NCBI GenBank assembly: GCA_964016885.1
Contig: OZ024748.1
Coordinates: 32,922,001-32,986,000 of the forward strand
Length of the DNA stretch: 64,000 nucleotides
Reading direction: 5' to 3'
Source: Eledone cirrhosa
Lineage: Eukaryota
Every line of letters starts with the position of its first letter. Position 1 is the stretch's first letter. Below the pieces are notes generated by a model, which was not told the origin of the DNA, ran no database searches, and saw only the letters and a program-made list of their open reading frames with translations. Positions 7,094-63,170 of the stretch are shown one piece after another. Both the position numbers and the translations under genes were made by a program.

Positions 7094-8548
7094 GACGAGA
7101 GAGCCCAAATTCTCCACTCACACTATGCTAAACCCATGGCCTCCAAATACCTGATACTCAAAAACTCAGCAATGTCCAGTAGTGCTAAGTTTAATATTCT
7201 GATCGCAGATTTGGTACGAGTGATGAAGAATGTGTCCAGCATGTGCGACCCAACAGAAATGGAAGGACACATCCAACACTTCATCAACCGTATGCAGTTC
7301 TCTGGCTACAACCAAAGAGACAGAGTCAGAGTATACGAAGGAGCCATGGAAAAGTATAAGACCCTCATAGAACTGGACATGAAAGGAATTTGCCCACTAT
7401 ACAGGAGCAAATCATGGAATAGCTTAGATAGGGCTAGACATAAGATAGGGAAGGCCACATCATGGTACGACAACCAGAGATATCAGAGTGTCATGTTTGT
7501 GGACGCCACCCCTGGAGGGAAATTAGCTAACCAGTGTAGAAAGGCCCTGAGAAAGACCCACTTAAAAATAAAGGTGGTAGAAAAGCCAGGAACCACCATA
7601 AAATCCCTGATCAGCAAAACCTACCCTTTTAAGAAAAACCCACTGTACCAATAGGAAATGTATCATATGTAAGGTGAACCCCCGGATAAACTGTAAAACT
7701 AGAAACGTAGTCTATAGCATAAGATGTACAGAGGGTACTTGCAGAAACACGACAACAACATACATAGGTGAGACAGCTCGTAGCATAGGTGAAAGGATAG
7801 ACCAACACTGGGGGGAACTAAAAGGACGAAAAATCGGGTCAGTACTATACGAACATGCTAGACAACATCATGACGGTAACATAGACAACATAGAAATTAG
7901 AATAATATCTAAACATAGGAATGACCCAGCAGATAGGCAAATCAGAGAGGCCAGTGAAATAGAAATTAGAAGACCAAAGCTAAACAGAAAGAATGAGTGG
8001 AACAACAACAACACCCAAACAAACAACACTGACCTAAGAGAAGTATAAATAAATAAGTAAATTAAATTAAATAAAATAAGATAAATAAATACATACACAA
8101 GCACATAAACACACACTAGTCACCCAGCAGACACAACACTATACACACTAGTCACACATCACACATAACACTATACACACACGCAAACGCATGCGCAAAG
8201 AAGACAAAATAAAATAAGATAAACAAACAAGCAAATAAATAAATAAATATATAGACAGACTGAACAAAAAAAAAAAAATGGCGTAGACATACAACACAAC
8301 AGGAGGAACAATGAATATAACACCACTGACGATGTTGCAGATGTGCAACGAAAGATTTATGTAAACTATATATATATGTGTTTGTCTATATTGTATCTGT
8401 ATTATTTTTGACCGCCGGTCAGTCAATGGCAACATTGAGGACCGAGTAAGTTAGATCGCAGATATATATATATAAAAGACAGCGAGAAGCGAAAACCAAC
8501 CAAACAGTGAGTGTGTTCTGTTATTAATTCTGGCAATATTACGCAAAT
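7093..8548 (+). mobile_element. PLE-A partial upstream tandem unit (extended pseudo-LTR)
   Basis: Nearly identical to 11227-12682. A +1 A near 7638 splits the ORF into 7076-7654 and 7674-8048. Confidence 0.95.
8322..8362 (+). ncRNA. HHR-like core (PLE-A pLTR)
   Basis: CTGACGA-t-gttgca-gatg-tgcaac-GAAA-gatt-TA-tg. Core and 6-bp stem II are clear; stems I and III are weak. Confidence 0.5.
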
Positions 8549-11500
8549 ATGACCCTCCCCAAATATAACAATATCTGTTTCGACACACGATTTCATATAA
8601 AAAACCTCGCAAAACTAATTCATCGCCGCTATGGCATTAGCTTGTGCCAAACTGAAAGGTTATTGAAAGACACTGTTTTCTGTTATATAAAAACTACAAT
8701 AACAACAGAACAAATCCGCTTCTTAAAACACTGTGTTTCCTCCAAAACATACACAACAAACATATCAAAACAAGTAAATAATTTATTATTGAACAAAACA
8801 CAAGCTGAACGGCTAAAACACACAATAACAGTTAATATGAAAAGAACAACATACACAAAAGTCAACGCACTCTACAGACAAAAACGCATCAACGGTAAGG
8901 AAATCCGAAATCTCATCACAGCAAACGAGAGAGATGACTTCATGAGCGTCATCCGACGCGAAACGAAATATGCTCAAAACGAATGCTGTAGGCATTTCAA
9001 GAAGAAATTAGAATGGATGAATAAGAAAAAACTACAAGAAAGGAAAATCGAATATTCTCAAAAATACCCAGATAACATCGACAACATCCGTATGAGTGAT
9101 GTAAAACTACCGGAAGAATTTACCAATGACCACACAGTAAATATCTATGGGAACACTTTAATCAGTGAACAAGAACAACAAATCCTAAAGTTACCACCAA
9201 AATTTGCCATCTACAAAAAGATTAACCCTATGGAATGCAAAACGGAACTGGAAAAGTGTTTCACAAAAATACGTTGGAATGCAAAGGTAAACAACAACAA
9301 CAATAATAACGGTAGTAGTAATATAAACAATAACTCTGGGTATAGAAATAACAGCCATAACCATAACAATGGCAGGAAAGTGAGAAATAGTGATAATGGT
9401 AATAATACTAGCGATAGACAGAACAACAACAACCACAATAATAATAATAATAGAAACGTTAACCACAGACACAGCAACAGTGACCACAGTAGTAATAACG
9501 GTAACAATACGAACAACAACAACAACAATAACCACAGTGGTAATAATGGAAATAGTACATGTAGCAACATCAACAAAAACAAGAAACATAATAATAGTAA
9601 CAACCACAATGGTAGAAATAGCAGTAACAACAACAACAATAACGGTGAAGTAAACAACAATACATCTAGCAATCATAACAATAATAATATTAATGCTAAT
9701 GATAGAAACAACAACAACCACCATGATAATAATAATAGCAACACACACAACTATGACGATAGAAATAACGACAACCCCTTAGAGAAACTATTTTTCAACC
9801 CAGCTGACAAAACATATAAGATGGGTAATATCTATCCTACGAGGTTACCCTTTAATAAAAGAGTTTGCATACCACAACAAATAGATGACGAGACGGAGGC
9901 ACAGTTCACCATAGCTAGAAATAAGATTAGACAAGTAGTAGACAGGTACACTATGAGACAGAGCAGACCAGAGGCCCAACAACTTGGGATAAAACCTGTA
10001 GAAGGCTTGGTTAGCCTCAAGCAGCGCACAAGGGATGGTGAGGTAGTGTGTCTACCCACAGATAAGTCTGGTAGGATGTCAATAGATAGCATGCCGAACT
10101 ACATCGAGGCAATGCAACCCCACATCACCAACACGAGCGAAGTTGCACAACTAACACACGATGGGAGAGAAAAAATCCTCAACGCTCACATGATGATGTG
10201 GACTGACATCCTAAAGCCAAGCAGACGCACTGCCAACAACTTCCAGGCGTCTAACAATGGCATACCACCCTTGTATGGGCTCCGCAAAGACCACAAGACA
10301 GTCGACGACCCGACAACAGGACCACCAACAAGACCTGTATGCGGAGCTAATATAGCTAGCAACTACAGGATCTCCTACTTCCTCTCAATGGTTATACGCC
10401 CCATAATCAAGATGTCCCCAGATGTATGTGAAAGTACAGAGGACCTTCTCAGCAGAATCAGTGAGTGCAACAAAAACAGGAGCCTATCCAACTGCATAAT
10501 AGGCAGCATGGATGTGGTGTCACTGTACCCATCCATTAACATTGATTTTGCTGTGAAAAGATGTGTGGAGATGATCATTGAGAGTGAGGTGGAGTTCTGC
10601 GACGTCGACACAGACGAACTGGGCCTCCTACTTAGACTTACCTACGACACTGACTACCTAGACAGCCATGACCTTAGATGTTTCTGCCCTAGTAGACCTA
10701 TAAGAGGTAGACCCCCCACCATAACCTCAATGGCTAAAAAGACTCCCATAGGAAGGTGGATTGGGTGGACCAAAGCTATACGGACCCCCCAAAACACTGA
10801 TCAGGTAAGAAAAATGGTCGCACATGCAATAGGGGCTAGTATCAAAACTACCCTAAAGGGCCACATATTTAAGTTCAATGAGAAAATCTACACCCAAAAT
10901 GAGGGAGCAGCCATCGGCGTCAGCATAGCTGGCGATGTTGCCAACCTTTTCATGGTATGGTGGGAAAGGAGACTTAAAGATCTCCTTAATGAAAGCTCCA
11001 TAGACCTCATCATGTACTCTCGTTATGTAGACGATATCAATATAGTTATAAGAACACCCCCACTAGAGAGCACTAACAAGTTTGATTTAGAACGTAGCAC
11101 GATGGAAAGCATCCAGCAGATAGCTAATTCCATACACCAGAGTATAACTGTAACTATAGACTTCCCTTCCAAACACCCTAACAATAGACTACCTGTATTA
11201 GACACAGAACTCTGGATTAACACTATAGACGAGAGAGCCCAAATTCTCCACTCACACTATGCTAAACCCATGGCCTCCAAATACCTGATACTCAAAAACT
11301 CAGCAATGTCCAGTAGTGCTAAGTTTAATATTCTGATCGCAGATTTGGTACGAGTGATGAAGAATGTGTCCAGCATGTGCGACCCAACAGAAATGGAAGG
11401 ACACATCCAACACTTCATCAACCGCATGCAGTTCTCTGGCTACAACCAAAGAGACAGAGTCAGAGTATACGAAGGAGCCATGGAAAAGTATAAGACCCTC

Positions 11501-12181
11501 ATAGAACTGGACATGAAAGGAATTTGCCCACTATACAGGAGCAAATCATGGAATAGCTTAGATAGGGCTAGACATAAGATAGGGAAGGCCACATCATGGT
11601 ACGACAACCAGAGATATCAGAGTGTCATGTTTGTGGACGCCACCCCTGGAGGGAAATTAGCTAACCAGTGTAGAAAGGCCCTGAGAAAGACCCACTTAAA
11701 AATAAAGGTGGTAGAAAAGCCAGGAACCACCATAAAATCCCTGATCAGCAAAACCTACCCTTTTAAGAAAACCCACTGTACCAATAGGAAATGTATCATA
11801 TGTAAGGTGAACCCCCGGATAAACTGTAAAACTAGAAACGTAGTCTATAGCATAAGATGTACAGAGGGTACTTGCAGAAACACGACAACAACATACATAG
11901 GTGAGACAGCTCGTAGCATAGGTGAAAGGATAGACCAACACTGGGGGGAACTAAAAGGACGAAAAAACGGGTCAGTACTATACGAACATGCTAGACAACA
12001 TCATGACGGTAACATAGACAACATAGAAATTAGAATAATATCTAAACATAGGAATGACCCAGCAGATAGGCAAATCAGAGAGGCCAGTGAAATAGAAATT
12101 AGAAGACCAAAGCTAAACAGAAAGAATGAGTGGAACAACAACAACACCCAAACAAACAACACTGACCTAAGAGAAGTATAA
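8549..12181 (+). CDS. Penelope-like element polyprotein (PLE-A): N-terminal domain with Asn-rich insert, reverse transcriptase, Cys linker, GIY-YIG endonuclease
   Basis: Uninterrupted 1210 aa with TDKSG, KDHK..RPV, motif A GSMDVVSLYPSI, B' QNEGAAIG, C YSRYVDD, LPVLD, Cys linker CTNRKCIIC, and VVYSIRC..C..YIGET.R..ER..QH. Confidence 0.95.
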   Translation: MTLPKYNNICFDTRFHIKNLAKLIHRRYGISLCQTERLLKDTVFCYIKTTITTEQIRFLKHCVSSKTYTTNISKQVNNLLLNKTQAERLKHTITVNMKRTTYTKVNALYRQKRINGKEIRNLITANERDDFMSVIRRETKYAQNECCRHFKKKLEWMNKKKLQERKIEYSQKYPDNIDNIRMSDVKLPEEFTNDHTVNIYGNTLISEQEQQILKLPPKFAIYKKINPMECKTELEKCFTKIRWNAKVNNNNNNNGSSNINNNSGYRNNSHNHNNGRKVRNSDNGNNTSDRQNNNNHNNNNNRNVNHRHSNSDHSSNNGNNTNNNNNNNHSGNNGNSTCSNINKNKKHNNSNNHNGRNSSNNNNNNGEVNNNTSSNHNNNNINANDRNNNNHHDNNNSNTHNYDDRNNDNPLEKLFFNPADKTYKMGNIYPTRLPFNKRVCIPQQIDDETEAQFTIARNKIRQVVDRYTMRQSRPEAQQLGIKPVEGLVSLKQRTRDGEVVCLPTDKSGRMSIDSMPNYIEAMQPHITNTSEVAQLTHDGREKILNAHMMMWTDILKPSRRTANNFQASNNGIPPLYGLRKDHKTVDDPTTGPPTRPVCGANIASNYRISYFLSMVIRPIIKMSPDVCESTEDLLSRISECNKNRSLSNCIIGSMDVVSLYPSINIDFAVKRCVEMIIESEVEFCDVDTDELGLLLRLTYDTDYLDSHDLRCFCPSRPIRGRPPTITSMAKKTPIGRWIGWTKAIRTPQNTDQVRKMVAHAIGASIKTTLKGHIFKFNEKIYTQNEGAAIGVSIAGDVANLFMVWWERRLKDLLNESSIDLIMYSRYVDDINIVIRTPPLESTNKFDLERSTMESIQQIANSIHQSITVTIDFPSKHPNNRLPVLDTELWINTIDERAQILHSHYAKPMASKYLILKNSAMSSSAKFNILIADLVRVMKNVSSMCDPTEMEGHIQHFINRMQFSGYNQRDRVRVYEGAMEKYKTLIELDMKGICPLYRSKSWNSLDRARHKIGKATSWYDNQRYQSVMFVDATPGGKLANQCRKALRKTHLKIKVVEKPGTTIKSLISKTYPFKKTHCTNRKCIICKVNPRINCKTRNVVYSIRCTEGTCRNTTTTYIGETARSIGERIDQHWGELKGRKNGSVLYEHARQHHDGNIDNIEIRIISKHRNDPADRQIREASEIEIRRPKLNRKNEWNNNNTQTNNTDLREV

Positions 12182-17671: not shown

Positions 17672-17887
17672 TATATATATATTTATATATGTAGATAAAT
17701 CTACCAAGAGTTTACGGTAGTGTCCAATCCGTATGAAGAACTCAATGTAATCCGGATATCATGGAAAGAAGAGATGCAATGAAAAATCACTTTCGGTGAA
17801 AGATAAACGGAATACAGAGTCAAGATAAAATATTTAAAAAATAATGAATAAAACAATGAAACAGTTCCTTATATTAAACAAAAAAAG

Positions 17888-18042
17888 TTCATTATTTAAC
17901 GATCGTTTCTAGGATATATATGTGTTAGAATTGGCATGCATATTCAACAGATCTATGTACAAAATTATACAAAATTATACAAACTATCAAAATTAAATAT
18001 ACATACCAAACACATATATATGCCGTCTTCAGAAATAATGAA
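17888..18042 (-). ncRNA. HHR with 116-nt stem II (PLE-B)
   Basis: Reverse complement of 24104-24258. Confidence 0.75.
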
Positions 18043-18626
18043 ATATATTTATTGATAATAACAACAATTCAAAATTTCAGGTCTGTTTGGGAACAAAATT
18101 CAAATTGACCAATGAAAATACAAAAAGTTTATACAGTTAGGTGTGTGTATATACATTTAAGTAACTTCGTTCACAGATATGCATAAAGATATATGTTCAC
18201 ATGCATACGCATGCCAAAAAGATGTATGTAAATACAAAAATTCAAGGCTAATGTCTCTGTAAGTTTATAATCTACAGATAAAATGCGTATACACACATAA
18301 ATATAAATAAATATATACACACATTCATATACTCACACATATTCGTACATTCACACACACACGCGCGTATACGCATAAACATACACACAACCACGAACAT
18401 ACATATACACATACACCCCCACACACATATATATGTGTATATACTATTATCATAAGCATATGGACATTAATGCACGCACATAAACACTGCCACACACATT
18501 TAGATCCAGATACAGAAATTAGGTGGGGGGGGGGGGCAGTATTCAACGGTGTCAGCAGACTGCCTATTTATAAATGTATCTATAAACTTAGAAATAAAAA
18601 GAAAAAGAAAAAAGAAATATATCAAG

Positions 18627-18672
<46 letters not shown>

Positions 18673-18719
18673 CACACACACACACACACACATATATATA
18701 CATATATATATATACATAC

Positions 18720-18764
<45 letters not shown>

Positions 18765-19153
18765 CATACACACATATATATATATATATAAACAAGTAAA
18801 ATATAAAATATACATCGATATACATACATATACATATATATATATATATATACACACACATAGACACACATACATATACATACATATACATACACATATA
18901 CACAAACATATAGATACACCTACATATACATACACATACCATATAAATACACATACACATACACACACGCATACATATAGAGGCACATACATATACACAT
19001 ATAAATACATAGACATATACACATATACACACATATATATATATATTTATATATATATACACACATACACGCATACACATATATATATATATATATACAT
19101 TCACAACACACGTATACATATACATACATATACACATATATATATATATATGC

Positions 19154-19186
<33 letters not shown>

Positions 19187-19301
19187 GACACATCTACACA
19201 CATATATATAAACACACTCATATATATACACACATACACATACATACCCACATATAAATATATATACATATATATATATACATACACACACATACACATA
19301 C

Positions 19302-19350
<49 letters not shown>

Positions 19351-19458
19351 CATATATATATACATATATATACACACCCACATACATATATATACACACA
19401 CACATACACATACACATATATAAAGATATATATACACACACATACAGATATAATAAAT

Positions 19459-19489
<31 letters not shown>

Positions 19490-19491
19490 CA

Positions 19492-19523
<32 letters not shown>

Positions 19524-19865
19524 CATATATACATACACACACATATACACACATACATACATATACACACACATACATACACACACATACATACTCATAC
19601 ATAGACATACATATATACTCACACACACATACACACTTACATATACGCATATATACAAATACATACACATCCATACATGCGTATATACATACAAACACCA
19701 CCACACGCTCACACAACTCGGACATACAAAGAAAAAGGTATATACATACATATATATACATATATAAATAGAGATACATATACATATATAAATATATACA
19801 CACGTACACACATAAACACACATACATACACATACATACACACATACATATATATACACACACAA

Positions 19866-19910
<45 letters not shown>

Positions 19911-20173
19911 TATATAAACATATACACATATATACATATACATACACATACATATATACATACATACACATACACACACACATATATATATATAAAAAAA
20001 TAAAGAAATAAGATAAATAAATTAATTAATTAATTAATACACACAGTCAGACAAATATGCACACACATACATATATATATACATACACATATATATATAC
20101 ACATATATACACATATATATATACATATACACACATATACATACACATATAAATACACATACACACATCAACT

Positions 20174-20208
<35 letters not shown>

Positions 20209-20420
20209 TATATATATATATAAATAATATATATATATATATACATATATACACACTCACATATATATGCGCACATACGTACACATATACACATACACAT
20301 ATATACATAGACATATACATGTGCATACATGTACATACACACATATACCCACATAGATACATAGATACACATATATATAGACATACATATACACACACAT
20401 ATATAGACACACATATACAC

Positions 20421-20457
<37 letters not shown>

Positions 20458-21636
20458 CACACAGTCATACACCCTTATTTGCATGCGCACATATGTATTT
20501 TTATACTCACATACAAACACCCAAACATACATACCTACCTACATATACATACATACATCCAGGCTTACAAATAATAATAGTAGGGGGGGGGGGGGGGGGA
20601 TTATAGTAAATATATATTTCAAGAAACATAGAATATTAATCTGCATTTAGATCATAATATGTGTTTACATAGTTTCAGTATTAGGAAATGTAAGAAAGAA
20701 GGCAAAATTATGCATTTCAATATAAGTATACCATTAATTATAGGTTAACTAAACTAAAGATAGTTAATATATTGATTTCTAAGGTGTATACTACTTAGGT
20801 TTATAATATTTGAAGCAGAAATTTGAAGTTAAATAGTAGTAGAGTATTAATTATAGTATAACTAAATTAAAATTATTAACGTTATGGTATCAATATTAGG
20901 AAACGAAATTAGTAATAGGGAAAAAACAAATAAAGTATTACATCGGTAGTAGAATATAAATTATAGGTTAACTAAATTAAAAATTATATATTAATTTCTA
21001 TAGTATATGTTAATTAGGTTTATAATAATTAAAACAGATATTGTATTTTATCTATATTAGAATATAATTATAGGTAAACAGAAATTAAAATTAATACATA
21101 CACATATACATATACATATATATATACATATATATATATATACACATACATATATATACACATACATATACATATTTTTTCAAAAATTGCAAAGAATATA
21201 TTAACTAGGTATACATCCAAAACCTATCTCATTCTATGATTACATGACACTCTGCAATCCATCTGTATTAGGATACTAATTTTAAGCCTATTAAATTAAA
21301 TTTTTAGGTTGACCAAATTTAAAACCAAATTATAAATATATTTCTAAAATGTACATTAATTAGGTCTATAATACTAAAAATTATTTCTCTGTCATTGAAT
21401 ACACGATATTTTGTTATATTTTATCTGTAAAGGAATTTTAATAAAAGGTTAAATAAATTAAAATTAATCTATAAATTAATTTATTAAGTATATATTAGTA
21501 ATATTTAAAAGTCTTTCGCAATTTATGATTACACAATATTTTATAATCTCATCTGTAGTAGAATTTTAATTAAATTAAATTTATAGGTTAACTAACATTT
21601 AAATTAAATTATATATTAATTTCTAAAATAATGTTA

Positions 21637-23386
21637 TTAATTAGGTTTATAATATTTAAATGTTTTTCTTAGTTTATGATTACACGATATAATTAATTCC
21701 TGTCGTTTATTTAATAGGATATCCTTAGATTTCATTATTTCAAATAGTTCTTGGGAACATAATCTACATTCATTTCTATTATTTTGATAAGGGGTGGCTC
21801 TTTTGAGCACACTCCAGGTCAAATCATATTCTATATTCTTATTTTTATAACTATTGATTTTTTCTGCTAGAGATGTTGTATTAGCCAGTGCGGCATTTTT
21901 AAAACTATGTTTGTGGGTATTAAACCTTGCCTTAAAATTGTTAGAAGTAGCTCCTATATATGAGCAAATAGAATCTTTAGTTTTAACATTACATTTATAA
22001 ACTATGTTGTTAACAAGACAATTTCCTTTTAATGGGCAGTTTGCTTTGTTTCTACAGTTACAACCTTTCGTTAATACTGTATTTGAGGAGATATTATGGT
22101 TAGTTTGATGTATTGGTGGTATACTTATGGTTTTCTTACATTTATATGCATTATAGGCACTTATATTTTGTTTTATGTTATTTGTTGTTGAGTATGAGAA
22201 TTTAACTGTAGACCTATTTAAGATTTGATGGTATTTGTGGTTTGGCGGGAAGTTTTTCTCTAGGATATAAACAAATTTTTTAGCAATATTATCCTTAATT
22301 TGTAAATTAAATGGAGCATTATACCAAGTAACCCGTCTATTACGGTTTCTATGTTGTTTATTATTTTTATAGGTTGTATCGTGATGTTTACTAGGAGGAT
22401 TAATGTTAATGATCTCACCACGCACATTTTTAGTTATATTTGTAGGTTTAGGTGTTTTATCTTGTTTATTAGGAGTTTTATTATTAACATTTATTAGAGT
22501 TGTATGATGAGTAGTTTTTTGAGAGTTACTATACTTTATATTAGAAGATTTGGTATTTTGGGGTATAGTGTGGGTGGCATTTAGGTGTGTACTTTTCATT
22601 TGGTGTTTGTTGGTAATATTAGGTTGTATGTTTTTAGTATTTTTAGTAGAAGGTATATATTCTAATCTATTTTTGTGGCCACTTCTATCTAGAGCTTCGT
22701 TATAGAAGGTCGCATTTTTATCAAATACATCTTGGTTAGAAGAAAGGTTAGAAATTCTAAGTGATATATTATATGCAAGGTTTTTAAGGATAGATTTAGG
22801 GTGATTAGATTGTGAGTGTATGTAGTGTAAGTTTTGGTTGGGTTTATGGTAAGGTTGGTAGATACCCGTAGCTAAGTCTAAAGTTATATCTAGGAAATTT
22901 ACTACTTTACTTGTTTTTTCAAAAGTAATATTGAAGACTATAATAGTCTTTAAGGAAAGTTCTAATATGCTTTTTGTTTTTTTCTATTTCTGAAAGGCTA
23001 AGGTTGTTGGAAAGAAGAAGACAGTCATCACGATATAAACCACCTTTAAGGTGGGGAAAGGAGGCATTTATGTTGAAAAGGAGAAATAGGCCCACAAGAT
23101 CAGTAATTTGGGCGGAATCGCTTGAACCCATAGTAATATCAAATAGATTACTATATGTGTTTCTGGTCCAGTATTCATTCTGAAATTCAATAAGTGTTAG
23201 TCTAGCATGTGTAATAATATTAATGTCATCCAAAGTTAAGTTAGATCTATTTTTAGCAAATATCAATGCTTTGTTCAGGAGTATAGGTGATATAGAAGAA
23301 TAGTAATTATCTATATCAAATTGTAGAAATGAGGCAGAAGATTTACAGAAGATTTACATTTAATATTTTTAAACCAGTTAATTACC
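21637..23386 (-). pseudogene. PLE-B RT/GIY-YIG ORF remnant
   Basis: Fragments 21637-22599 and 22919-23266 match the ORF at 57079-59532. There is a +1 insertion near 22931 and an 11-bp duplication near 23335-23356. Confidence 0.9.
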
Positions 23387-23457
23387 ATATATATATATGT
23401 GTGTGTATGTATATGTATATATATATATATATGTATATGTATGTATATATATATATG

Positions 23458-23488
<31 letters not shown>

Positions 23489-24321
23489 ATGTGTGTATAT
23501 ATATATATATAATTTTCTTGATATATTTCTTTTTTCTTTTTATTTTTATTTCTAAGTTTATAGATACATTTATAAATAGGCAGTCTGCTGACACCGTTGA
23601 ATACTGACCTCCCCCCCCCACACCTAATTTCTGTATCTGGATCTAAATGTGTGTGGCAGTGTTTATGTGCGTGCATTAATGTCCATATGCTTATGATAAT
23701 AGTATATACACATATATATGTGTGTGGGGGTGTATGTGTATATGTATGTTCGTGGTTGTGTGTATGTTTATGCGTATACGCGCGTGTGTGTGTGAATGTA
23801 CGAATATGTGTGAGTATATGAATGTGTGTATATATTTATTTATATTTATGTGTGTATACGCATTTTATCTGTAGATTATAAACTTACAGAGACATTAGCC
23901 TTGAATTTTTGTATTTACATACATCTTTTTGGCATGCGTATGCATGTGAACATATATCTTTATGCATATCTATGAACGAAGTTACTTAAATGTATATACA
24001 CACACCTAACTGTATAAACTTTTTGTATTTTCATTGGTCAATTTGAATTCTGTTCCCAAACAGACCTGAAATTTTGAATTGTTGTTATTATCAATAAATA
24101 TATTTCATTATTTCTGAAGACGGCATATATATGTGTTTGGTATGTATATTTAATTTTGATAGTTTGTATAATTTTGTATAATTTTGTACATAGATCTGTT
24201 GAATATGCATGCCAATTCTAACACATATATATCCTAGAAACGATCGTTAAATAATGAACTTTTTTTGTTTAATATAAGGAACTGTTTCATTGTTTTATTC
24301 ATTATTTTTTTAATATTTTAT
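23387..24321 (+). repeat. Inverted copy of the PLE-B 3' end (inverted pLTR)
   Basis: Reverse complement of ~17825-18780. Confidence 0.9.
24104..24258 (+). ncRNA. Type I HHR with 116-nt extended stem II (PLE-B)
   Basis: ttcattattt-CTGAAGA-[116-nt hairpin]-GAAA-cgatcg-TT-aaataatgaa. Stem I is a perfect 10 bp and stem III is the palindrome AACGATCGTT. Confidence 0.8.
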
Positions 24322-24357
24322 ATATTTATATATATATTTATTAAAATAACAGATTAA

Positions 24358-24408
24358 AGTTTAAGCAAAGAATCGCTGCTTTCACCCTTAACTGGATCTT
24401 CTGAAACT
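24358..24408 (-). ncRNA. HHR variant with CAGAAGA core (family F)
   Basis: Minus strand reads agttt-CAGAAGA-tccagttaagggt-GAAA-gcagcgattctttgc-TT-aaact. Confidence 0.55.
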
Positions 24409-29335: not shown

Positions 29336-29989
29336 ACGTACAAATACACACATACATAATAAATAAATCAAATACTTATATGATGATGATGATATGCAAA
29401 CATAGATACAAACATATACATGGACACAAATTTCTACACACATACATTCACATATATATAGCGTATATAAATTCTGAACCATACAGTTTTGTCAGCACAA
29501 GTCTTGGTTACAACTTCTACAAATAAAAAGGAAAATAATTTCTTAGTAAAACAGTTTTATTCAAAATATTAACAACATTGGTGGCACTATTTTGGGTGAG
29601 TAACATGATTTTTATCTTGTCTGATTGTGTTGCATTAAGTAATCTTTACAAGAGAAGGATTTACCACAGACATCACAGTGATATGGTTCTTCTCCTGTAT
29701 ATGTTAGTGTGTAGTGAAGCCACAACATTTAGACAATGATTTATCACAGACATCACAGTGATATGGTTCCTCTCCTGTATATGTTAGTGTCTAGTGAAGC
29801 CACAACATTTAGAGAATGATGTACCAAATATATCAAAGTGATATGGCTTCCCAGCTGTATGTATATGTTTGTGTGTAGTTAATGTAACATTCAAAGAGAA
29901 TGATTTCCCTCAGATGTCACAATGATATGTATTTGTATTCTCATTAAATCACAAATTTGAGGGAATGATTTATCACTGATGTCAATGCG

Positions 29990-30865
<876 letters not shown>

Positions 30866-44548: not shown

Positions 44549-44744
44549 ATTAAAGATATACCTATGTTCTAAGCGCTCTTTGTTGTTAATTGTATTACGG
44601 CTCTGTCCTCTGACAATGAGCTAACCATATACTGACTATTTGATAAGTGGAGTGTTACACACTCCCAATTCTCTCCCTTATATATTTGTATTCTCATTAA
44701 TTCACAAATTTGAGGGAATGATTTATTACTGATGTCAATGCGTT

Positions 44745-46876
<2,132 letters not shown>

Positions 46877-50738: not shown

Positions 50739-50859
50739 TTATTGACACGTGTTTCTATAACAGTTACATAACCTGAAAACAGCTGCTATCTACAAAGTAT
50801 TAGTTATGCAGACATTCAATATTTCAATATTATTATTTACTGGCATTTCATCAGAATAA
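50739..50859 (-). ncRNA. HHR with 92-nt stem II (PLE-D)
   Basis: Reverse complement of 53030-53150, with one stem II mismatch. Confidence 0.7.
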
Positions 50860-53029: not shown

Positions 53030-53150
53030 TTATTCTGATGAAATGACAGTAAATAATAATATTGAAATATTGAATGTCTGCATAACTAATACTTTGTAGA
53101 TAGCAGCTGTTTTCAGGTTATGTAACTGTTATAGAAACACGTGTCAATAA
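53030..53150 (+). ncRNA. Type I HHR with 92-nt extended stem II (PLE-D)
   Basis: ttatt-CTGATGA-a-atgacagt...actgttat-a-GAAA-cacgtg-TC-aataa. Stem III is the palindrome ACACGTGT and the site is GUC. Confidence 0.8.
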
Positions 53151-55718: not shown

Positions 55719-56802
55719 GATAAATCTACCAAGAGTTTACGGTAGTGTCCAATCCGTATGAAGAACTCAATGTAATCCGGATATCATGGAAAGAAGAGAT
55801 GCAATGAAAAATCACTTTCGGTGAAAGATAAACGGAAAACAGAGTCAAGATAAAATATTAAAAAAATAATGAATAAAACAATGAAACAGTTCCTTATATT
55901 AAACAAAAAAAGTTCATTATTTAACGATCGTTTCTAGGATATATATGTGTTAGAATTGGCATGCATATTCAACAGATCTATGTACAAAATTATACAAAAT
56001 TATACAAACTATCAAAATTAAATATACATACCAAACACATATATATGCCGTCTTCAGAAATAATGAAATATATTTATTGATAATAACAACAATTCAAAAT
56101 TACAGGTCTGTTTGGGAACAGAGTTCAAATTGACCAATGAAAATACAAAAAGTTTATACAGTTAGGTGTGTGTATATATGCATATAAGTAACTTCGTTCA
56201 CAGATATGCATAAAGATATATGTTCACATGCATACGCTTGCCAAAAAGATGTATGTAAATACAAAAATTCAAGGCTAATGTCTGTATGTTTATAATCTGT
56301 ATGTTTATAATCTACAGATAAAATACGTACACACATATATAAATATAAAATAAATATATACACACATTCATATAGTCACACATATACGTACATTCACACA
56401 CACACGCGCGTATACGCATACACATACACACAACCACGAACATACATACACACATACACCCCCACACACATATATATGTGTGTATATACTATTATCATAA
56501 GCATATGGATATTAATGCGCGCACATAAACACTGCCACACACATTTAGATCCAGATACAGAAAGTAGGTGGGGGGGGGGGAGAGGTCAGTATTCACCGGT
56601 GTCAGCAGACTGCCTATTTATAAATGTATCTATAAAATTAAAAATAAAAAGAAAAGAAAAAGAAAAAAGAAATATATCAAGAAAATATATATATATAATA
56701 TATACATACACACACATATATATATATATATACACATATATATATACATACACACATATATAAACAAGTAAAATATAAAATATACATCGATATACATACA
56801 TA

Positions 56803-56836
<34 letters not shown>

Positions 56837-57030
56837 CATACATATACATACATATACATATACATACACATATACACAAACACATACATACACATACATA
56901 TACATACACACACCATATAAATACACATATACATACACACACGCATACATATAGAGACATATACATATACACATATAAATACATAGACATATACACATAT
57001 ACACACATATATATTTATGTATATACATAT
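55715..57030 (-). repeat. Inverted copy of the PLE-B 3' end with 135-nt tail; HHR at 55913-56067
   Basis: Reverse complement of ~61960-63141 and directly similar to 17690-19050. Confidence 0.9.
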
Positions 57031-57099
57031 ATATGTATGATTTTGTAAACCCATATACATTTAGTTGAGCTCTTTCAATTGTCCATCATCCATATCACA

Positions 57100-59532
57100 A
57101 TGGAAAAACAATATTTGGGAACCTCTTTAAAGAACATACCAATACCTTCTAAGGATGATTTCTTACTCCTTATGATTCAAAAAACTAACCAATTTATCAG
57201 AAGAGTTAGATGGAGGGCCTACCACTTCGATAAAAAATCTAAATATGCAGATAGGAAATATATGTATGATTTCAATACTTACAAGAATCCAGCACACAAC
57301 TCTTTGCTTGAAGACTTTGAGAAAGACCTTTTTAATTTAATTAAACACCTCAAATTTAAAAAGTATAAATCTGTCTTTCAAAAGGACCTTGATTCTACCC
57401 TATTGGACCTAAAAAAGTCTAAAAAAATCCATGTTCACTCGGACAAAACTGGTAACTTGTATCACATGGATATTGAAGATTATAATGAGTTCATATATAA
57501 AGAACTCAGGAAAAATTATAAAAAATCTAATAATGCGTCACTCACCAACATCAACAACAAAACACACAACATAGTAAAAAAAATAAACATTGAAGATAGA
57601 ACTGAACCTTTGGCATTGAAAAGACCACACTTCAACCTGAAGGATCATAAATCAAACTTTAACTCAAATCCTTCTATAAGACTTATATGTCCCTCCAAAT
57701 CTGATATTGGAATAATTAGCAAAAAAATTTTGGATAGAGTCATCCCACAAATAAGAAAACGCGTTATTTTACCACTCTGGGAAAACACTTCCCAGGTAAT
57801 TAACTGGTTTAAAAATATTAGATGTAAATCTTCTGCTTCATTTCTACAATTTGATATAGATAATTACTATTCTTCCATATCACCTATACTCCTGAACAAA
57901 GCATTGATATTTGCTAAAAATAGATCTAACTTAACTTTGGATGACATTAATATTATTACACATGCTAGACTAACACTTATTGAATTTCAGAATGAATACT
58001 GGACCAGAAACACATATAGTAATCTATTTGATATTACTATGGGTTCAAGCGATTCCGCCCAAATTACTGATCTTGTGGGCCTCTTTCTCCTTTTCAACAT
58101 AAATGCCTCCTTTCCCCACCTTAAAGGTGGTTTATATCGTGATGACTGTCTTCTTCTTTCCAACAACCTTAGCCTTTCAGAAATAGAAAAAAACAAAAAG
58201 CATATTAGAACTTTCCTTAAAAACTATTATAGTCTTCATATTACTTTTGAAAAAACAAGTAAAGTAGTAAATTTCCTAGATATAACTTTAGACTTAGCTA
58301 CGGGTATCTACCAACCTTACCATAAACCCAACCAAAACTTACACTACATACACTCACAATCTAATCACCCTAAATCTATCCTTAAAAACCTTGCATATAA
58401 TATATCACTTAGAATTTCTAACCTTTCTTCTAACCAAGATGTATTTGATAAAAATGCGACCTTCTATAACGAAGCTCTAGATAGAAGTGGCCACAAAAAT
58501 AGATTAGAATATATACCTTCTACTAAAAATACTATAAACATACAACCTAATATTACCAACAAACACCAAATGAAAAGTACACACCTAAATGCCACCCACA
58601 CTATACCCAAAAATACCAACTCTTCTAATATAAAGTATAGTAACTCTCAAAAAACTACTCATCATACAACTCTAATAAATGTTAATAATAAAACTCCTAA
58701 TAAACAAGATAAAACACCTAAATCTACAAATCTAACTAAAAATGTGCGTGGTGAGATCATTAACATTAATCCTCCTAGTAAACATCACGATACAACCTAT
58801 AAAAATAATAAACAACATAGAAACCGTAATAGACGGGTTACTTGGTATAATGCTCCATTTAATTTACAAATTAAGGATAATATTGCTAAAAAATTTGTTT
58901 ATATCCTAGAGAAAAACTTCCCGCCAAACCACAAATACCATCAAATCTTAAATAGGTCTACAATTAAATTCTCATACTCAACAACAAATAACATAAAACA
59001 AAATATAAGTGCCTATAATGCATATAAATGTAAGAATACCATAAGTATACCACCAATACATCAAACTAACCATAATATCTCCTCAAATACAGAATTAACG
59101 AAAGGTCGTAACTGTAGAAACAAAGCAAACTGCCCATTAAAAGGAAATTGTCTTGTTAACAACATAGTTTATAAATGTAATGTTAAAACTAAAGATTATA
59201 TTTTTTCATATATAGGAGCTACTTCTAACAATTTTAAGGCAAGGTTTAATACCCACAAACATAGTTTTAAAAATGCTGCACTGGCTAATACAACATCTCT
59301 AGCAGAAAAAATCAATAGTTATAAAAATAAGAATATAGAATATGATTTGACCTGGAGTGTGCTCAAAAGAGCCACCCCTTATCAAAATAATAGAAATGAA
59401 TGTAGATTATGTTCCCAAGAACTATTTGAAATAATGAAATCTAAGGATATCCTATTAAATAAACGACAGGAATTAATTATATCGTGTAATCATAAACTAA
59501 GAAAAACATTTAAATATTATAAACCAAATTAA
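57100..59532 (+). CDS. PLE-B polyprotein (Hydra-clade-like): RT plus C-terminal GIY-YIG, 810 aa from the first ATG
   Basis: SLKNIP, RRVRWRA, SDKTGN, LKDHK, QFDIDNYYSSI, ITMGS, GLYRDD, NFLD, WYNAPF, CPLKGNCL, IVYKC..YIGAT..FKARF..H. The clade label comes from recall of motifs, not from a tree. Confidence 0.92.
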   Translation: MEKQYLGTSLKNIPIPSKDDFLLLMIQKTNQFIRRVRWRAYHFDKKSKYADRKYMYDFNTYKNPAHNSLLEDFEKDLFNLIKHLKFKKYKSVFQKDLDSTLLDLKKSKKIHVHSDKTGNLYHMDIEDYNEFIYKELRKNYKKSNNASLTNINNKTHNIVKKINIEDRTEPLALKRPHFNLKDHKSNFNSNPSIRLICPSKSDIGIISKKILDRVIPQIRKRVILPLWENTSQVINWFKNIRCKSSASFLQFDIDNYYSSISPILLNKALIFAKNRSNLTLDDINIITHARLTLIEFQNEYWTRNTYSNLFDITMGSSDSAQITDLVGLFLLFNINASFPHLKGGLYRDDCLLLSNNLSLSEIEKNKKHIRTFLKNYYSLHITFEKTSKVVNFLDITLDLATGIYQPYHKPNQNLHYIHSQSNHPKSILKNLAYNISLRISNLSSNQDVFDKNATFYNEALDRSGHKNRLEYIPSTKNTINIQPNITNKHQMKSTHLNATHTIPKNTNSSNIKYSNSQKTTHHTTLINVNNKTPNKQDKTPKSTNLTKNVRGEIININPPSKHHDTTYKNNKQHRNRNRRVTWYNAPFNLQIKDNIAKKFVYILEKNFPPNHKYHQILNRSTIKFSYSTTNNIKQNISAYNAYKCKNTISIPPIHQTNHNISSNTELTKGRNCRNKANCPLKGNCLVNNIVYKCNVKTKDYIFSYIGATSNNFKARFNTHKHSFKNAALANTTSLAEKINSYKNKNIEYDLTWSVLKRATPYQNNRNECRLCSQELFEIMKSKDILLNKRQELIISCNHKLRKTFKYYKPN

Positions 59533-60937
59533 TAACATTATTTTAGAATTTAATATATAATTTAATTTAAATGTTAGTTAACCTATAAATTTAATTTAAT
59601 TAAAATTCTACTACAGATGAGATTATAAAATATTGTGTAATCATAAATTGTGAAAAACTTTTAAATATCACTAATATATACTTCGTAAATTAATTTATAG
59701 ATTAATTTTAATTTATTTAACCTTTTATTAAAATTCCTTTACAGATAAAATATAACAAAATATCGTGTATTCAATGACAGAGAAATAATTTTTAGTATTA
59801 TAGACCTAATTAATGTACATTTTAGAAATATATTTATAATTTGGTTTTAAATTTGGTCAACCTAAAAATTTAATTTAATTGGCTTAAAATTAATATCCTA
59901 ATACAGATGGATTGCAGAGTGTCATGTAATCATAGACTGAGATAGGTTTTGGATCCATACCTAGTTAATATATTCTTTGCAATTTTTGAAAAAATATGTA
60001 TATGTATGTATATATATGTATATGTATATATATATATGTATATATATATATGTATATGTATATGTGTATGTATTAATTTTAATTTCTGTTTACCTATAAT
60101 TATATTCTACTATAGATAAAATACAATATCTGTTTTAATTATTATAAACCTAATTAACATATACTATAGAAATTAATATATAATTTTTAATTTAGTTAAC
60201 CTATAATTTATATTCTACTACCGATGTAATACTTTATTTGTTTTTTCCCTATTACTAAATTCATTTCCTAATATTGATACCATAACGTTAATAATTTTAA
60301 TTTAGTTATACTATTATTAATACTCTACTACTATTTAACTTCAAAATTCCGCTTCAAATATTTTAAACCTAAGTAGTATACACCTTAGAAATCAATATAT
60401 TAACTATCCTTAATTTAGTTAACCTATGGTTAATGGTATAATTATATTGAAATGCATAATTTTGCCTTCTTTCTTACATTTCCTAATACTGAAACTATGT
60501 AAACACATATTATGATCTAAATGCAGATTAATATTCTATGTTTCTTGAAACCTATATTTACTATAATCCCCCCACCCCCTCCCCCTCCCCCCCCCTACTA
60601 TTATTATTTGTATTTGTAAGCGTGGATGTATGTATGTATATGTAGGTAGGTATGTATGTTTGGGTGTTTGTATGTGAGTATAAAAATACATATGTGCGCA
60701 TGTAAATAAGGGTGTATGATTGTGTGTATATATATATGTATATATGTATATGTGTATATGTATATATGTGTGTATATATATATATATATGTATATGTGTG
60801 CGTATATATATGTATATATGTATCTATGTATTTATGTGGGTATATGTGTGTATGTATATGTATGCACATGTATATGTCTATGTGTATATGTGTGTATGTG
60901 TATATGTGTACGCATGTGCGCATGTATATGTGAGTGA

Positions 60938-61019
<82 letters not shown>

Positions 61020-61206
61020 TTGTAGTCGATGTGTGTATGTGTGTGTATGTATATATTTATGTGTATGTATATGTATATATATATATATATATGTATATGT
61101 ATGTGTGTATGTATATATATATATGTATATGTATGTGTGTGCATATTTGTCTGACTGTGTGTATTAATTTATTTATTTATTTATTTATCTTATTTCTTTA
61201 TTTTTT

Positions 61207-61237
<31 letters not shown>

Positions 61238-61258
61238 ATATATATGTATATATATATA

Positions 61259-61297
<39 letters not shown>

Positions 61298-61631
61298 ATG
61301 TGTGTGTATGTGTGTGTATATATATGTATGTGTGTATGTATGTGTATGTATGTGTGTTTTTGTGTGTGTACGTGTGTATATATTTATATATATATATATG
61401 TATCTCTATTTATATATGTATATATGTGTATGTATATCCCTTTATTTATGTATGTCTGAGTTGTGTGAGCGTGTGGTGGTGTTTGTATGTATATACGCTT
61501 ACATGGATGTGTATGTATGTGTATATATGCGTATATGTATGTGTGTATGTGTGTGTGAGTATATATGTATGTCTATGTAAGAGTATGTATGTGTGTGTAT
61601 GTATGTGTGTATATATATGTATGTGTGTATA

Positions 61632-61694
<63 letters not shown>

Positions 61695-61778
61695 TATGTG
61701 TGTGTGTGTGTGTATATATATCTTTATATATATGTATGCGTATGTGTGTGTATGTGTGTGTCTATATATATATATATA

Positions 61779-61819
<41 letters not shown>

Positions 61820-61881
61820 TTATATGTGGGTATGTATGTGTATGTGTGTATATACATGAGTGTGTTTATATATGTGTGTAG

Positions 61882-61929
<48 letters not shown>

Positions 61930-62158
61930 GTGTGTTGTGAATGTATGTGTATATATATGTATGCGTATATGTGTATATATATATATATGTGTGTATATGT
62001 GTATATGTCTATGTATTTATATGTGTATATGTATGTGTCTCTATATGTATGCGTGTGTGTATGTATATGTGTATTTATATGGTGTGTGTATGTATATGTA
62101 TGTGTATGTATGTGTTTGTGTATATGTGTATGTATATGTATATGTATGTATATGTATG

Positions 62159-62215
<57 letters not shown>

Positions 62216-63134
62216 ATCGATGTATATTTTATATTTTACTTGTTTATATATGTGTGTATGTATAAATATATGTGTATATATATATATGTGTGTGTGTATG
62301 TATATATATTATATATATATATTTTCTTGATATATTTCTTTTTTCTTTTTCTTTTCTTTTTATTTCTAAGTTTATAGATACATTTATAAATAGGCAGTCT
62401 GCTGACACCGGTGAATACTGACCTCTCCCCCCCCCACCTACTTTCTGTATCTGGATCTAAATGTGTGTGGCAGTGTTTATGTGCGCGCATTAATATCCAT
62501 ATGCTTATGATAATAGTATATACACACATATATATGTGTGTGGGGGTGTATGTGTGTATGTATGTTCGTGGTTGTGTGTATGTGTATGCGTATACGCGCG
62601 TGTGTGTGTGAATGTACGTATATGTGTGACTATATGAATGTGTGTATATATTTATTTTATATTTATATATGTGTGTACGTATTTTATCTGTAGATTATAA
62701 ACATACAGAGACATTAGCCTTGAATTTTTGTATTTACATACATCTTTTTGGCAAGCGTATGCATGTGAACATATATCTTTATGCATATCTGTGAACGAAG
62801 TTACTTATATGCATTTTATACACACACCTAACTGTATAAACTTTTTGTATTTTCATTGGTCAATTTGAACTCTGTTCCCAAACAGACCTGTAATTTTGAA
62901 TTGTTGTTATTATCAATAAATATATTTCATTATTCCTGAAGACGGCATATATATGTGTTTGGTATGTATATTTAATTTTGATAGTTTGTATAATTTTGTA
63001 TAATTTTGTACATAGATCTGTTGAATATGCATGCCAATTCTAACACATATATATCCTAGAAACGATCGTTAAATAATGAACTTTTTTTGTTTAATATAAG
63101 GAACTGTTTCATTGTTTTATTCATTATTTTTTTA

Positions 63135-63141
<7 letters not shown>
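59533..63141 (+). mobile_element. PLE-B 3.6-kb 3' region (degenerate repeats, microsatellite tract, pLTR)
   Basis: Colinear with 17825-21636 on the minus strand. Confidence 0.88.
62926..63080 (+). ncRNA. HHR with 116-nt stem II (PLE-B)
   Basis: As 24104-24258, with a T>C change at the core-proximal stem I pair. Confidence 0.72.

Positions 63142-63170
<29 letters not shown>

Follow-up and report, generated by a model that had tools for sequence, protein, structure and literature searches.

Penelope-like elements (PLEs) carry type I hammerhead ribozymes in their pseudo-LTRs. In the window, by which we mean the whole 64,000-nt stretch of Eledone cirrhosa DNA analysed here, one such motif has its two core halves 116 nt apart. 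Is this still a hammerhead, and is the RNA of its host element cut by it or copied whole?

A hammerhead core with a 116-nt stem II

The features in and beside the motif are:

24093–24098 (+), AATAAA directly 5′ of the ribozyme, retained in most subfamily copies; a possible poly(A) signal
24104–24113 (+), stem I, 5′ strand (sequence; double-sided changes in 5/10 pairs among 20 copies)
24114–24120 (+), 5′ half of the catalytic core, C3–A9, CUGAAGA (sequence; 20 aligned copies)
24121–24236 (+), stem II, the 116-nt rod (folding and sequence)
24140–24145 (+), putative splice-donor-like GTATGT within the rod (sequence)
24237–24248 (+), 3′ half of the core (G12–A15.1), palindromic stem III and GUU triplet (sequence)
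24249–24258 (+), stem I, 3′ strand (sequence)

The core at 24104–24258(+) is intact, with its two halves split by the 116-nt insert. An initial annotation, made from the sequence, had described it in these terms, with a perfect 10-bp stem I and a palindromic stem III, and every part is in place. Stem I (24104–24113 with 24249–24258) has 10 bp without a mismatch, G12 is 24237 and the palindrome AACGAUCGUU occupies 24239–24248. The core segment that follows the insert reads GAAACGAUCGUU and the predicted cut lies 3′ of 24248 (GUU), a position we infer from the hammerhead consensus. H17 is U in this copy and A in most sister subfamilies. Folded alone, the 10-nt palindrome gives a duplex of −11.8 kcal/mol and no hairpin.

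The insert folds into a rod without branches (−42.4 kcal/mol and z −6.94, with none of 200 shuffles equally stable), and the opposite strand of the insert folds more weakly (−21.4 kcal/mol, z −3.45). The fold-back described beforehand is exact: a 16-bp helix has precisely three G-U pairs, which favour this strand, and tgtataa pairs with ttgtaca in a 7-bp helix with one G-U. The proximal helix consists of 13 perfect pairs plus GG/CC flanking a bulged C, and the small apical hairpin (∼24158–24196) is the portion best retained between subfamilies. The insert is AT-rich and holds a 10-nt internal duplication. Two features had been overlooked, namely the predicted loss of stem I with ∼40 nt more 3′ sequence (see below) and the stem II–core junction, which is non-canonical (C..UA, without a G10.1–C11.1 pair beside G12). 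Such a closing pair is a usual rather than a required feature, since natural hammerheads that lack one are reported (PMC3088659).

The motif has the type I core (CUGANGA … GAAA … UH), three helices with an open and covarying stem I, and a Watson–Crick 3–8 pair. It has the self-complementary short stem III of the dimer-type PLE hammerheads, whereas their helix II of 4–8 bp is replaced by the 116-nt insert. With the PLE hammerheads of Cervera and de la Pena (2014; PMC4209133) it shares the type I topology, the pseudo-LTR location, a stem III that is short and palindromic, one additional base after A9, the U3–A8 variant and the low activity expected without a partner; it differs from them in the length of helix II (4–8 bp, with a conserved G10.1–C11.1) and in having no such pair beside G12. 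By sequence and structure, the long-armed motif is a type I hammerhead outside the short-helix-II norm, with cleavage predicted.

The expectation that length-limited motif searches would miss this class was borne out. Rfam gave no hammerhead match over 23950–24400 at E values up to 10, and the best 150 of 283 matches contained no hammerhead, only AT-repeat microRNA noise; the published core descriptor has a spacer of 7–17 nt (PMC8557442). The same topology with a stem I of at least 10 pairs occurs three times in the 64-kb window and in none of 100 dinucleotide-matched random windows.

The host element

Four copies of the ribozyme had been announced, and the parts of the two insertions that carry them are:

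23387–24321 (+), inverted 5′ arm (pseudo-LTR copy) that holds the 24104 ribozyme and ends in (TA)n (sequence)
17888–18042 (−), ribozyme in the 3′ pseudo-LTR of the first insertion, identical to 24104–24258; tail at ∼17824–17691 (sequence)
55913–56067 (−), ribozyme in the second insertion's inverted 5′ arm, identical to 24104–24258; tail at ∼55849–55715 (sequence)
62926–63080 (+), ribozyme in the second insertion's 3′ pseudo-LTR, which differs from 24104–24258 only by U24113 to C (sequence)
21637–22983 (−), open 3′ portion of the first insertion's PLE ORF, 448 codons from stop to stop (ORF list)
57100–59532 (+), 810-aa ORF for RT and a GIY-YIG-type endonuclease with Hydra-clade motifs (motifs compared with PMC8557442)

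All four copies (17888(−), 24104(+), 55913(−) and 62926(+)) are present and form the termini of two insertions from a single family (17825–24321 and 55850–63143). Both insertions combine a 3′ pseudo-LTR with an inverted 5′ arm; the 24104 ribozyme sits in the inverted arm of the first. Three are identical, but the stem I of the 62926 copy is not perfect, because the change of U24113 to C breaks the core-proximal pair. The assignment as a type I hammerhead with a palindromic stem III in a PLE pseudo-LTR stands.

The ORF at 57100–59532 has RWR near residue 40, DKT at 115–117, YRDD and a C-terminal endonuclease region with YIG; no CCHH was found in its endonuclease by eye or by motif scan. The CxCX5C linker is whole (CNCRNKANC) in the 21637–22983 copy, and its first C is altered in the 57100 copy. 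Pfam matched no family to either ORF. The ORF has 118 homologues, the best of them 39% identical over the full length, and one ORF copy carries a stop codon. The published account of Hydra-clade PLEs, which are C-terminal EN+ elements (Craig et al., 2021; PMC8557442), describes the same RWR in place of RWK, the DKT, the CxCX5C linker, the lack of CCHH, the (TA)n targets, the inverted 5′-truncated arm and the one-sided tail. By its motifs and its match to this description, the host is a Hydra-type PLE. It departs from the clade in two respects that are descriptive rather than defining: Hydra-clade elements are generally < 3 kb with a canonical hammerhead, whereas the units here are 6.7–6.9 kb with a long stem II. 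In File S2 of that work all 26 Hydra-clade hammerhead rows have a short stem II (Hydra-1_oBim, 7 bp and an 8-nt loop).

The insertions end in (TA)n, some with and some without the ∼135-nt tail. This is a young, abundant family, with 96–100% identity in all 150 endonuclease matches that were scored. The 6.7–6.9 kb units also occur head to tail, three in a row being seen, and in the tandem the ORF begins ∼500 nt 3′ of the ribozyme and inferred start. Metazoan non-LTR retrozymes (PMC7229834; bioRxiv 10.64898/2026.07.22.740005) share the type I topology, a 2-bp stem III and a palindromic tetraloop. They are short non-coding tandem units, each with a hammerhead, unlike the 24104 locus, where the ribozyme flanks an ORF-bearing, autonomous element.

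The window holds other repeats. A different PLE (8528–12181(+), 14456(+), 3214(−)) has 1,217 codons, an asparagine-rich insert and inverted arms; its endonuclease motifs look Neptune-like by eye, and it carries a short-stem-II hammerhead candidate with a longer stem III. A third family (273(−), 600(+), 38256(+)) has short hammerheads with a 14-nt stem II and the palindrome ACUAGU. Two C2H2 zinc-finger arrays, related to each other and built of 84-bp repeats, lie at 29625–30865 and 44569–46876(−).

Retention of the paired structure

Covariation was assessed on 20 untruncated copies from three subfamily groups, 5′-truncated and unrelated loci being excluded. Position 3–8 is CG in 12 of the 20 copies, UA in the other 8 and unpaired in none; stem I is paired at 92.5%, with both-sided changes at 5/10 pairs, and slid controls are paired at 29–58%. 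The two stem III pairs are invariant across the 20 copies. At the level of single pairs, the number of pairs with double changes does not exceed shuffles (66/500). The independent events are few, the U3–A8 swap representing one lineage. GAAA and stem III are unchanged over the three subfamily groups, versus only 51 of the 116 insert columns. We take the hammerhead fold to be under selection because a sister subfamily swaps C3–G8 for U3–A8 and compensates its stem I. The U3–A8 core pattern has 2,733 genome matches against 857 for the control, and at one such locus (L181) an ORF 60–75% identical to the 57100 ORF lies directly 3′ on the same strand. The variant has also been published for Schistosoma PLEs (PMC4209133).

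The rod behaves differently. A column-wise alignment of it was not possible, and only its apical hairpin survives in the consensus fold, but where the proximal part of stem II has been replaced it still pairs (L047 and L050; L055 and the L166–L184 group, folded singly). By folding, the rod is conserved as a paired structure rather than as a sequence.

A large class of long stem II hammerheads

The window contains a second family of this type:

53030–53150 (+), long-stem-II hammerhead with a 92-nt insert, palindrome ACACGUGU and GUC triplet (sequence and folding)
50739–50859 (−), its inverted twin (sequence)

The element of the 92-nt family is related, its protein being ∼45% identical to that of the 57100 family (locus L082). 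The genome was searched, as had been suggested, for longer forms of stem II, with a pattern made of the core 5′ half, a spacer and GAAAC-N4-GUH, and with the reversed pattern as control. Spacers of 40–130 nt lie far above the control. With A before G12 the matches number 2,381 versus 226 for 40–70 nt, 10,651 versus 455 for 71–100 nt and 9,674 versus 312 for 101–130 nt; with another base before G12 there are 8,801 versus 440 for 71–100 nt. Together these four long bins hold 31,507 matches versus 1,433 in the controls. At 131–160 nt the count is near background (498 versus 246), and spacers of 10–39 nt with any base before G12 give 8,143 versus 2,752. These are counts of pattern matches in which overlaps are possible and some nested short hammerheads are included; two of the bins lack the non-A forms, and short forms whose stem III differs in length are not counted.

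The 61 loci sampled fall into 26 clusters, a non-random sample since the loci were hand-picked from listings. Eleven clusters have a stem I of at least 4 contiguous pairs and a palindromic stem III; one was dropped as nested, which leaves ten, one of them a sister of the 24104 family. The other 15 of the 26 lack the stem I pairing, the palindrome or both. L065 is among these, a tandem Hydra-type element with a full ORF, a 90-nt rod, a palindromic stem III and almost no in-register stem I, its three copies being identical. The stem II insert is 47–116 nt across the sampled families, and Hydra-type ORFs 30–52% identical to the 57100 ORF adjoin long-stem motifs at L065, L066, L068, L082, L083, L220 and L224. 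Given the pattern counts and the roughly ten sampled families, the earlier suggestion of a class is upheld: long-armed motifs form a large class in this genome, unseen by the standard RNA-family scan.

Several candidates were set aside. A 65-nt insert beside a Neptune-like ORF (the L072 group) and L171, taken at first for a second U3–A8 family, each contain a nested short hammerhead, and the loci with 131–160-nt spacers (L078, L079, L103, L104) appear to have arisen by chance or at junctions. No relatives were confirmed in metagenome contigs. A tandem array of ∼660-bp units, each with a hammerhead with a 48–49-nt stem II and the palindrome ACCAUGGU, lies at G000:C1:92,987,298–93,013,748 (L073 is its start) and looks like a long-stem retrozyme by its sequence.

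In PMC8557442, core spacers of 35–50 nt appear only as ‘half cores’ in Naiad elements, and the longest listed stem II is that of the spike-moss PLE-X1_sMoe (9 bp and a 34-nt loop, 52 nt), which is flagged there as deviating. Among the sources available, the Naiad half cores and this 52-nt stem II region are the nearest precedents. The literature searched, in which subscription papers and the supplement of Craig et al. were thinly covered, holds no description of PLE hammerheads with a stem II of 80–116 nt.

The probable start of the element RNA and the RNA that is copied

Genomic copies were counted by their first non-native base upstream of C3. This base is at −7 in 489 copies, at −8 in 3,036 and at −9 in 249, and 6,715 copies are native at −8. 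From the non-native and native counts at −8, ∼31% of the copies that reach −7 stop at A24107:

24107 (+), sharp 5′ boundary of many genomic copies in the context TCATT; putative transcription start (genomic ends)

We take TCATT to be an initiator-like context. Read from the DNA ends, 24107 is likely to be the transcription start of the element RNA, which would then hold only 24107–24113 of the stem I 5′ strand. The end could also arise by cleavage downstream of the AATAAA at 24093. Among 30 loci that end at −7, six belong to one amplified chimera; at the other 24 the ribozyme abuts an inverted arm, (TA)n or other DNA. A G at −8, as expected from a cap, is found at 7 of the 30 loci, in 4 independent places. 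The chimera (L110, L114–L118; 6 of the 30 junction loci) consists of one other repeat fused to the ribozyme exactly at −7 and then amplified. At inverted junctions (L105/L106, L107/L108, L119/L120) the first 7–13 bases re-start repeatedly, in some cases after a G, a pattern like repeated template jumps at an RNA 5′ end. In the 92-nt family no 5′ boundary is seen at the ribozyme; none of 30 loci has its end at the TCAGT of this family, and the ends found are one at −5, one at −28 and two at −44.

There are 37 junctions at the cut site, and of 30 that were inspected 11 fold back through stem I; the control position at G12 has 19. Genomic copies that begin at the cut site show no excess, and the near absence of such copies argues that uncut RNA is copied. 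At L137, L138, L142, L143, L148, L150, L151, L154, L157–L159 and L162 an inverted ribozyme leads, at stem I, back into the downstream sequence, which suggests that the cDNA end primed on its own stem I complement. PAc, a Poseidon element of the green anole (Frangieh et al., 2024; PMC11167929), is alike in its uncut insertion RNA, its lack of cut-site reads and a tail that comes from two RT start sites. It differs in that its hammerhead overlaps the ORF start, whereas here the ORF lies ∼500 nt past the inferred start.

Predicted folding of the element RNA

In an RNA that begins at 24107 the core halves are predicted to zip onto the base of the rod (P 0.75–0.94). The probability of stem I is ≤ 0.01 at all seven lengths folded and the active fold lies 9.2 kcal/mol above the minimum. 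An RNA that begins at 24090 is predicted to form stem I with P 0.82–0.91 through 24280 and ≤ 0.01 from 24295 on, and from 24041 stem I is predicted to be absent at every length. The idea of a kinetic window is therefore context-dependent, since the RNA from 24041 never forms stem I. The competing structure is:

24249–24307 (+), downstream hairpin that captures the stem I 3′ strand, with 24286–24295 or the perfect repeat 24298–24307 as partner (folding)

Capture of this strand by the hairpin is likewise predicted for those related subfamilies that were folded, with stem I surviving in L174 (0.99) and L061 (0.57). In the best fold of two copies, rod strands are swapped and the palindrome is unused. 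Three points go beyond the initial annotation: the motif is likely to lie at the RNA 5′ end, the genomic copies are likely to come from uncut RNA and the ground state is predicted to be an inactive fold.

A-to-G changes in run X5

Contigs of two sequencing runs, X5 and X1, were compared on locus L012 (window position = L012 + 22539). The runs have the same species label and study and different sample labels, and the kind of X5 is not on record; we take X5 to be RNA because of its size and its A-to-G signal. X5 is likely RNA and X1 likely DNA. The run-specific sites are:

24153, 24215, 24229, 24236 and 24240 (A15.1) (+), A-to-G in X5 (contigs on L012)

At these sites A-to-G reaches 41, 34, 18, 17 and 20% in X5 versus 0–0.016% in X1; each site has 17–41% of the depth in 6–27 contigs. 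All five lie in the rod or core and none in the deeper-covered tail at a 10% threshold, and four of the five, 24236 and 24240 included, are paired in the zipped fold. The ten changes listed for X5 comprise six A-to-G and one T-to-C. A single highly expressed copy with five A-to-G differences may explain the signal. The proposal that the rod is an ADAR substrate gains from these changes, which come from one run of unrecorded kind.

Inosine at A15.1 lowers cutting at a UH site; no paper on this effect was found in the literature searched. A15.1 is usually considered essential (PMC3088659). No description of editing in a natural hammerhead core was found in the literature searched, which covered subscription papers thinly.

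At the donor-like site (L012:1598) a single contig of X5 departs from the element and runs on for at least 255 unrelated letters; this is possibly a splice into host sequence, and the loose end was not found in the genome. At L012:1569–1869 the family is abundant under a second organism label (X4; runs X4, X6, X7 and X12 were examined). Single low-depth, near-identical contigs under three other labels may be contamination. A search across sequencing runs listed no RNA run that contains the sequence, a result that carries no weight on expression.

Discussion

On balance, and without great confidence, we think it probable that this is a PLE pseudo-LTR hammerhead with a 116-nt rod, likely at the RNA 5′ end, and likely a slow, conditional dimer-type cutter that is mostly held off, with cleavage predicted. 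Its mode of action is most likely that of a dimer-type PLE hammerhead whose activity is normally suppressed. Transcription from 24107 would leave only 7 bp of stem I in the RNA, the core halves would zip onto the base of the rod and the downstream hairpin would take the stem I 3′ strand. We propose that a single copy would stay uncut and serve as template because its core is zipped and its stem I strand captured. Reverse transcription would begin from the tail on this uncut RNA. The long duplex would draw A-to-I editing, which on reaching A15.1 would disable the core further. Cutting would need two copies that pair via the 10-nt palindrome; or else read-through RNA with the full 10-bp stem I would cut briefly before the downstream hairpin is made. 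In vitro, the anole PLE inserts mainly from RNA that has not been cut (PMC11167929). A likeness in position is offered by the Pr77/HDV-like dual system of L1Tc, in which ribozyme and internal promoter occupy the first bases of a retrotransposon RNA (PMC3383444). The L1Tc ribozyme is of another class, whereas a hammerhead cut here would strip the RNA of its own 5′ end, ∼142 nt.

Two other readings are unlikely, though each deserves weight. The long-armed form may be the main hammerhead of the PLEs of this genome and an ADAR-gated switch at the RNA 5′ end, such that editing decides whether the RNA is cut or copied whole; if true, a natural ribozyme would be under the control of host RNA editing and the cut would remove the capped end. 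Alternatively, and in our view with no better prospects, the motif no longer cuts and is kept as a folded handle for an element protein or as part of an internal promoter, the rod having been free to grow because nothing catalytic constrains it. The lack of excess copies starting at the cut site, the non-canonical base of stem II with the GUU triplet, the inactive predicted fold and the L065 family, nearly without stem I, would all fit a motif that does not cut, as would the anole PLE, whose insertion in vitro was unaffected by catalytic mutants (PMC11167929). Yet the U3–A8 swap preserves a pair of the catalytic fold and also occurs in Schistosoma PLEs (PMC4209133), and GAAA and stem III are constant in the three subfamily groups where the insert keeps 51 of 116 columns.

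Less probable again is that tandem-unit RNA is cut as a dimer, circularized and reverse transcribed by rolling circle into tandem arrays, as proposed for retrozymes. The three head-to-tail units of ∼6.7–6.9 kb and the ∼660-bp-unit array with a 48–49-nt stem II hammerhead in each unit speak for such a route, which PMC4209133 proposes; but the ∼30% of copies that end at 24107 point to a linear template with that 5′ end, and insertion into (TA)n beside old copies also yields tandems. It is very improbable that slippage and fold-back in AT-rich DNA with TA repeats gave rise to the rod as a neutral by-product. The AT-rich insert with its 10-nt duplication, the opposite strand, which also beats shuffles (z −3.45), and several sampled families that fold no better than shuffles are consistent with this origin, against which stand the G-U pairs that favour the ribozyme strand (−42.4 versus −21.4 kcal/mol), the pairing retained by lineages with replaced sequence, the recurrence of long inserts among families without shared sequence and counts that fall to near background past 130 nt (498 versus 246). 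We give hardly any credence to the idea that the rod hides an intron, spliced from the donor at 24140 either to the AG at G12, so that the hammerhead becomes compact, or to an acceptor 5′ of the ORF, so that the coding RNA loses half of the ribozyme. The donor-like hexamer is retained across subfamilies, PLE pseudo-LTRs bear introns, one of which in Drosophila virilis ends at the hammerhead (PMC4209133), and one X5 contig exits the element right there. In the contigs of seven runs, however, no joint that skips 24140–24237 or runs from 24139 to the ORF is listed, the 92-nt family has no donor able to rebuild the core and the loose end of the X5 contig was not located in the genome.

The family bears on the role of these ribozymes in PLEs. 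Tens of thousands of long-armed motifs are invisible to the usual descriptors. The genomic ends of the family probably record the RNA start and uncut copying, with a possible signal of host editing on a catalytic base. Natural stem II lengths from ∼11 to 116 nt within one genome form a ready series on the function of the arm.
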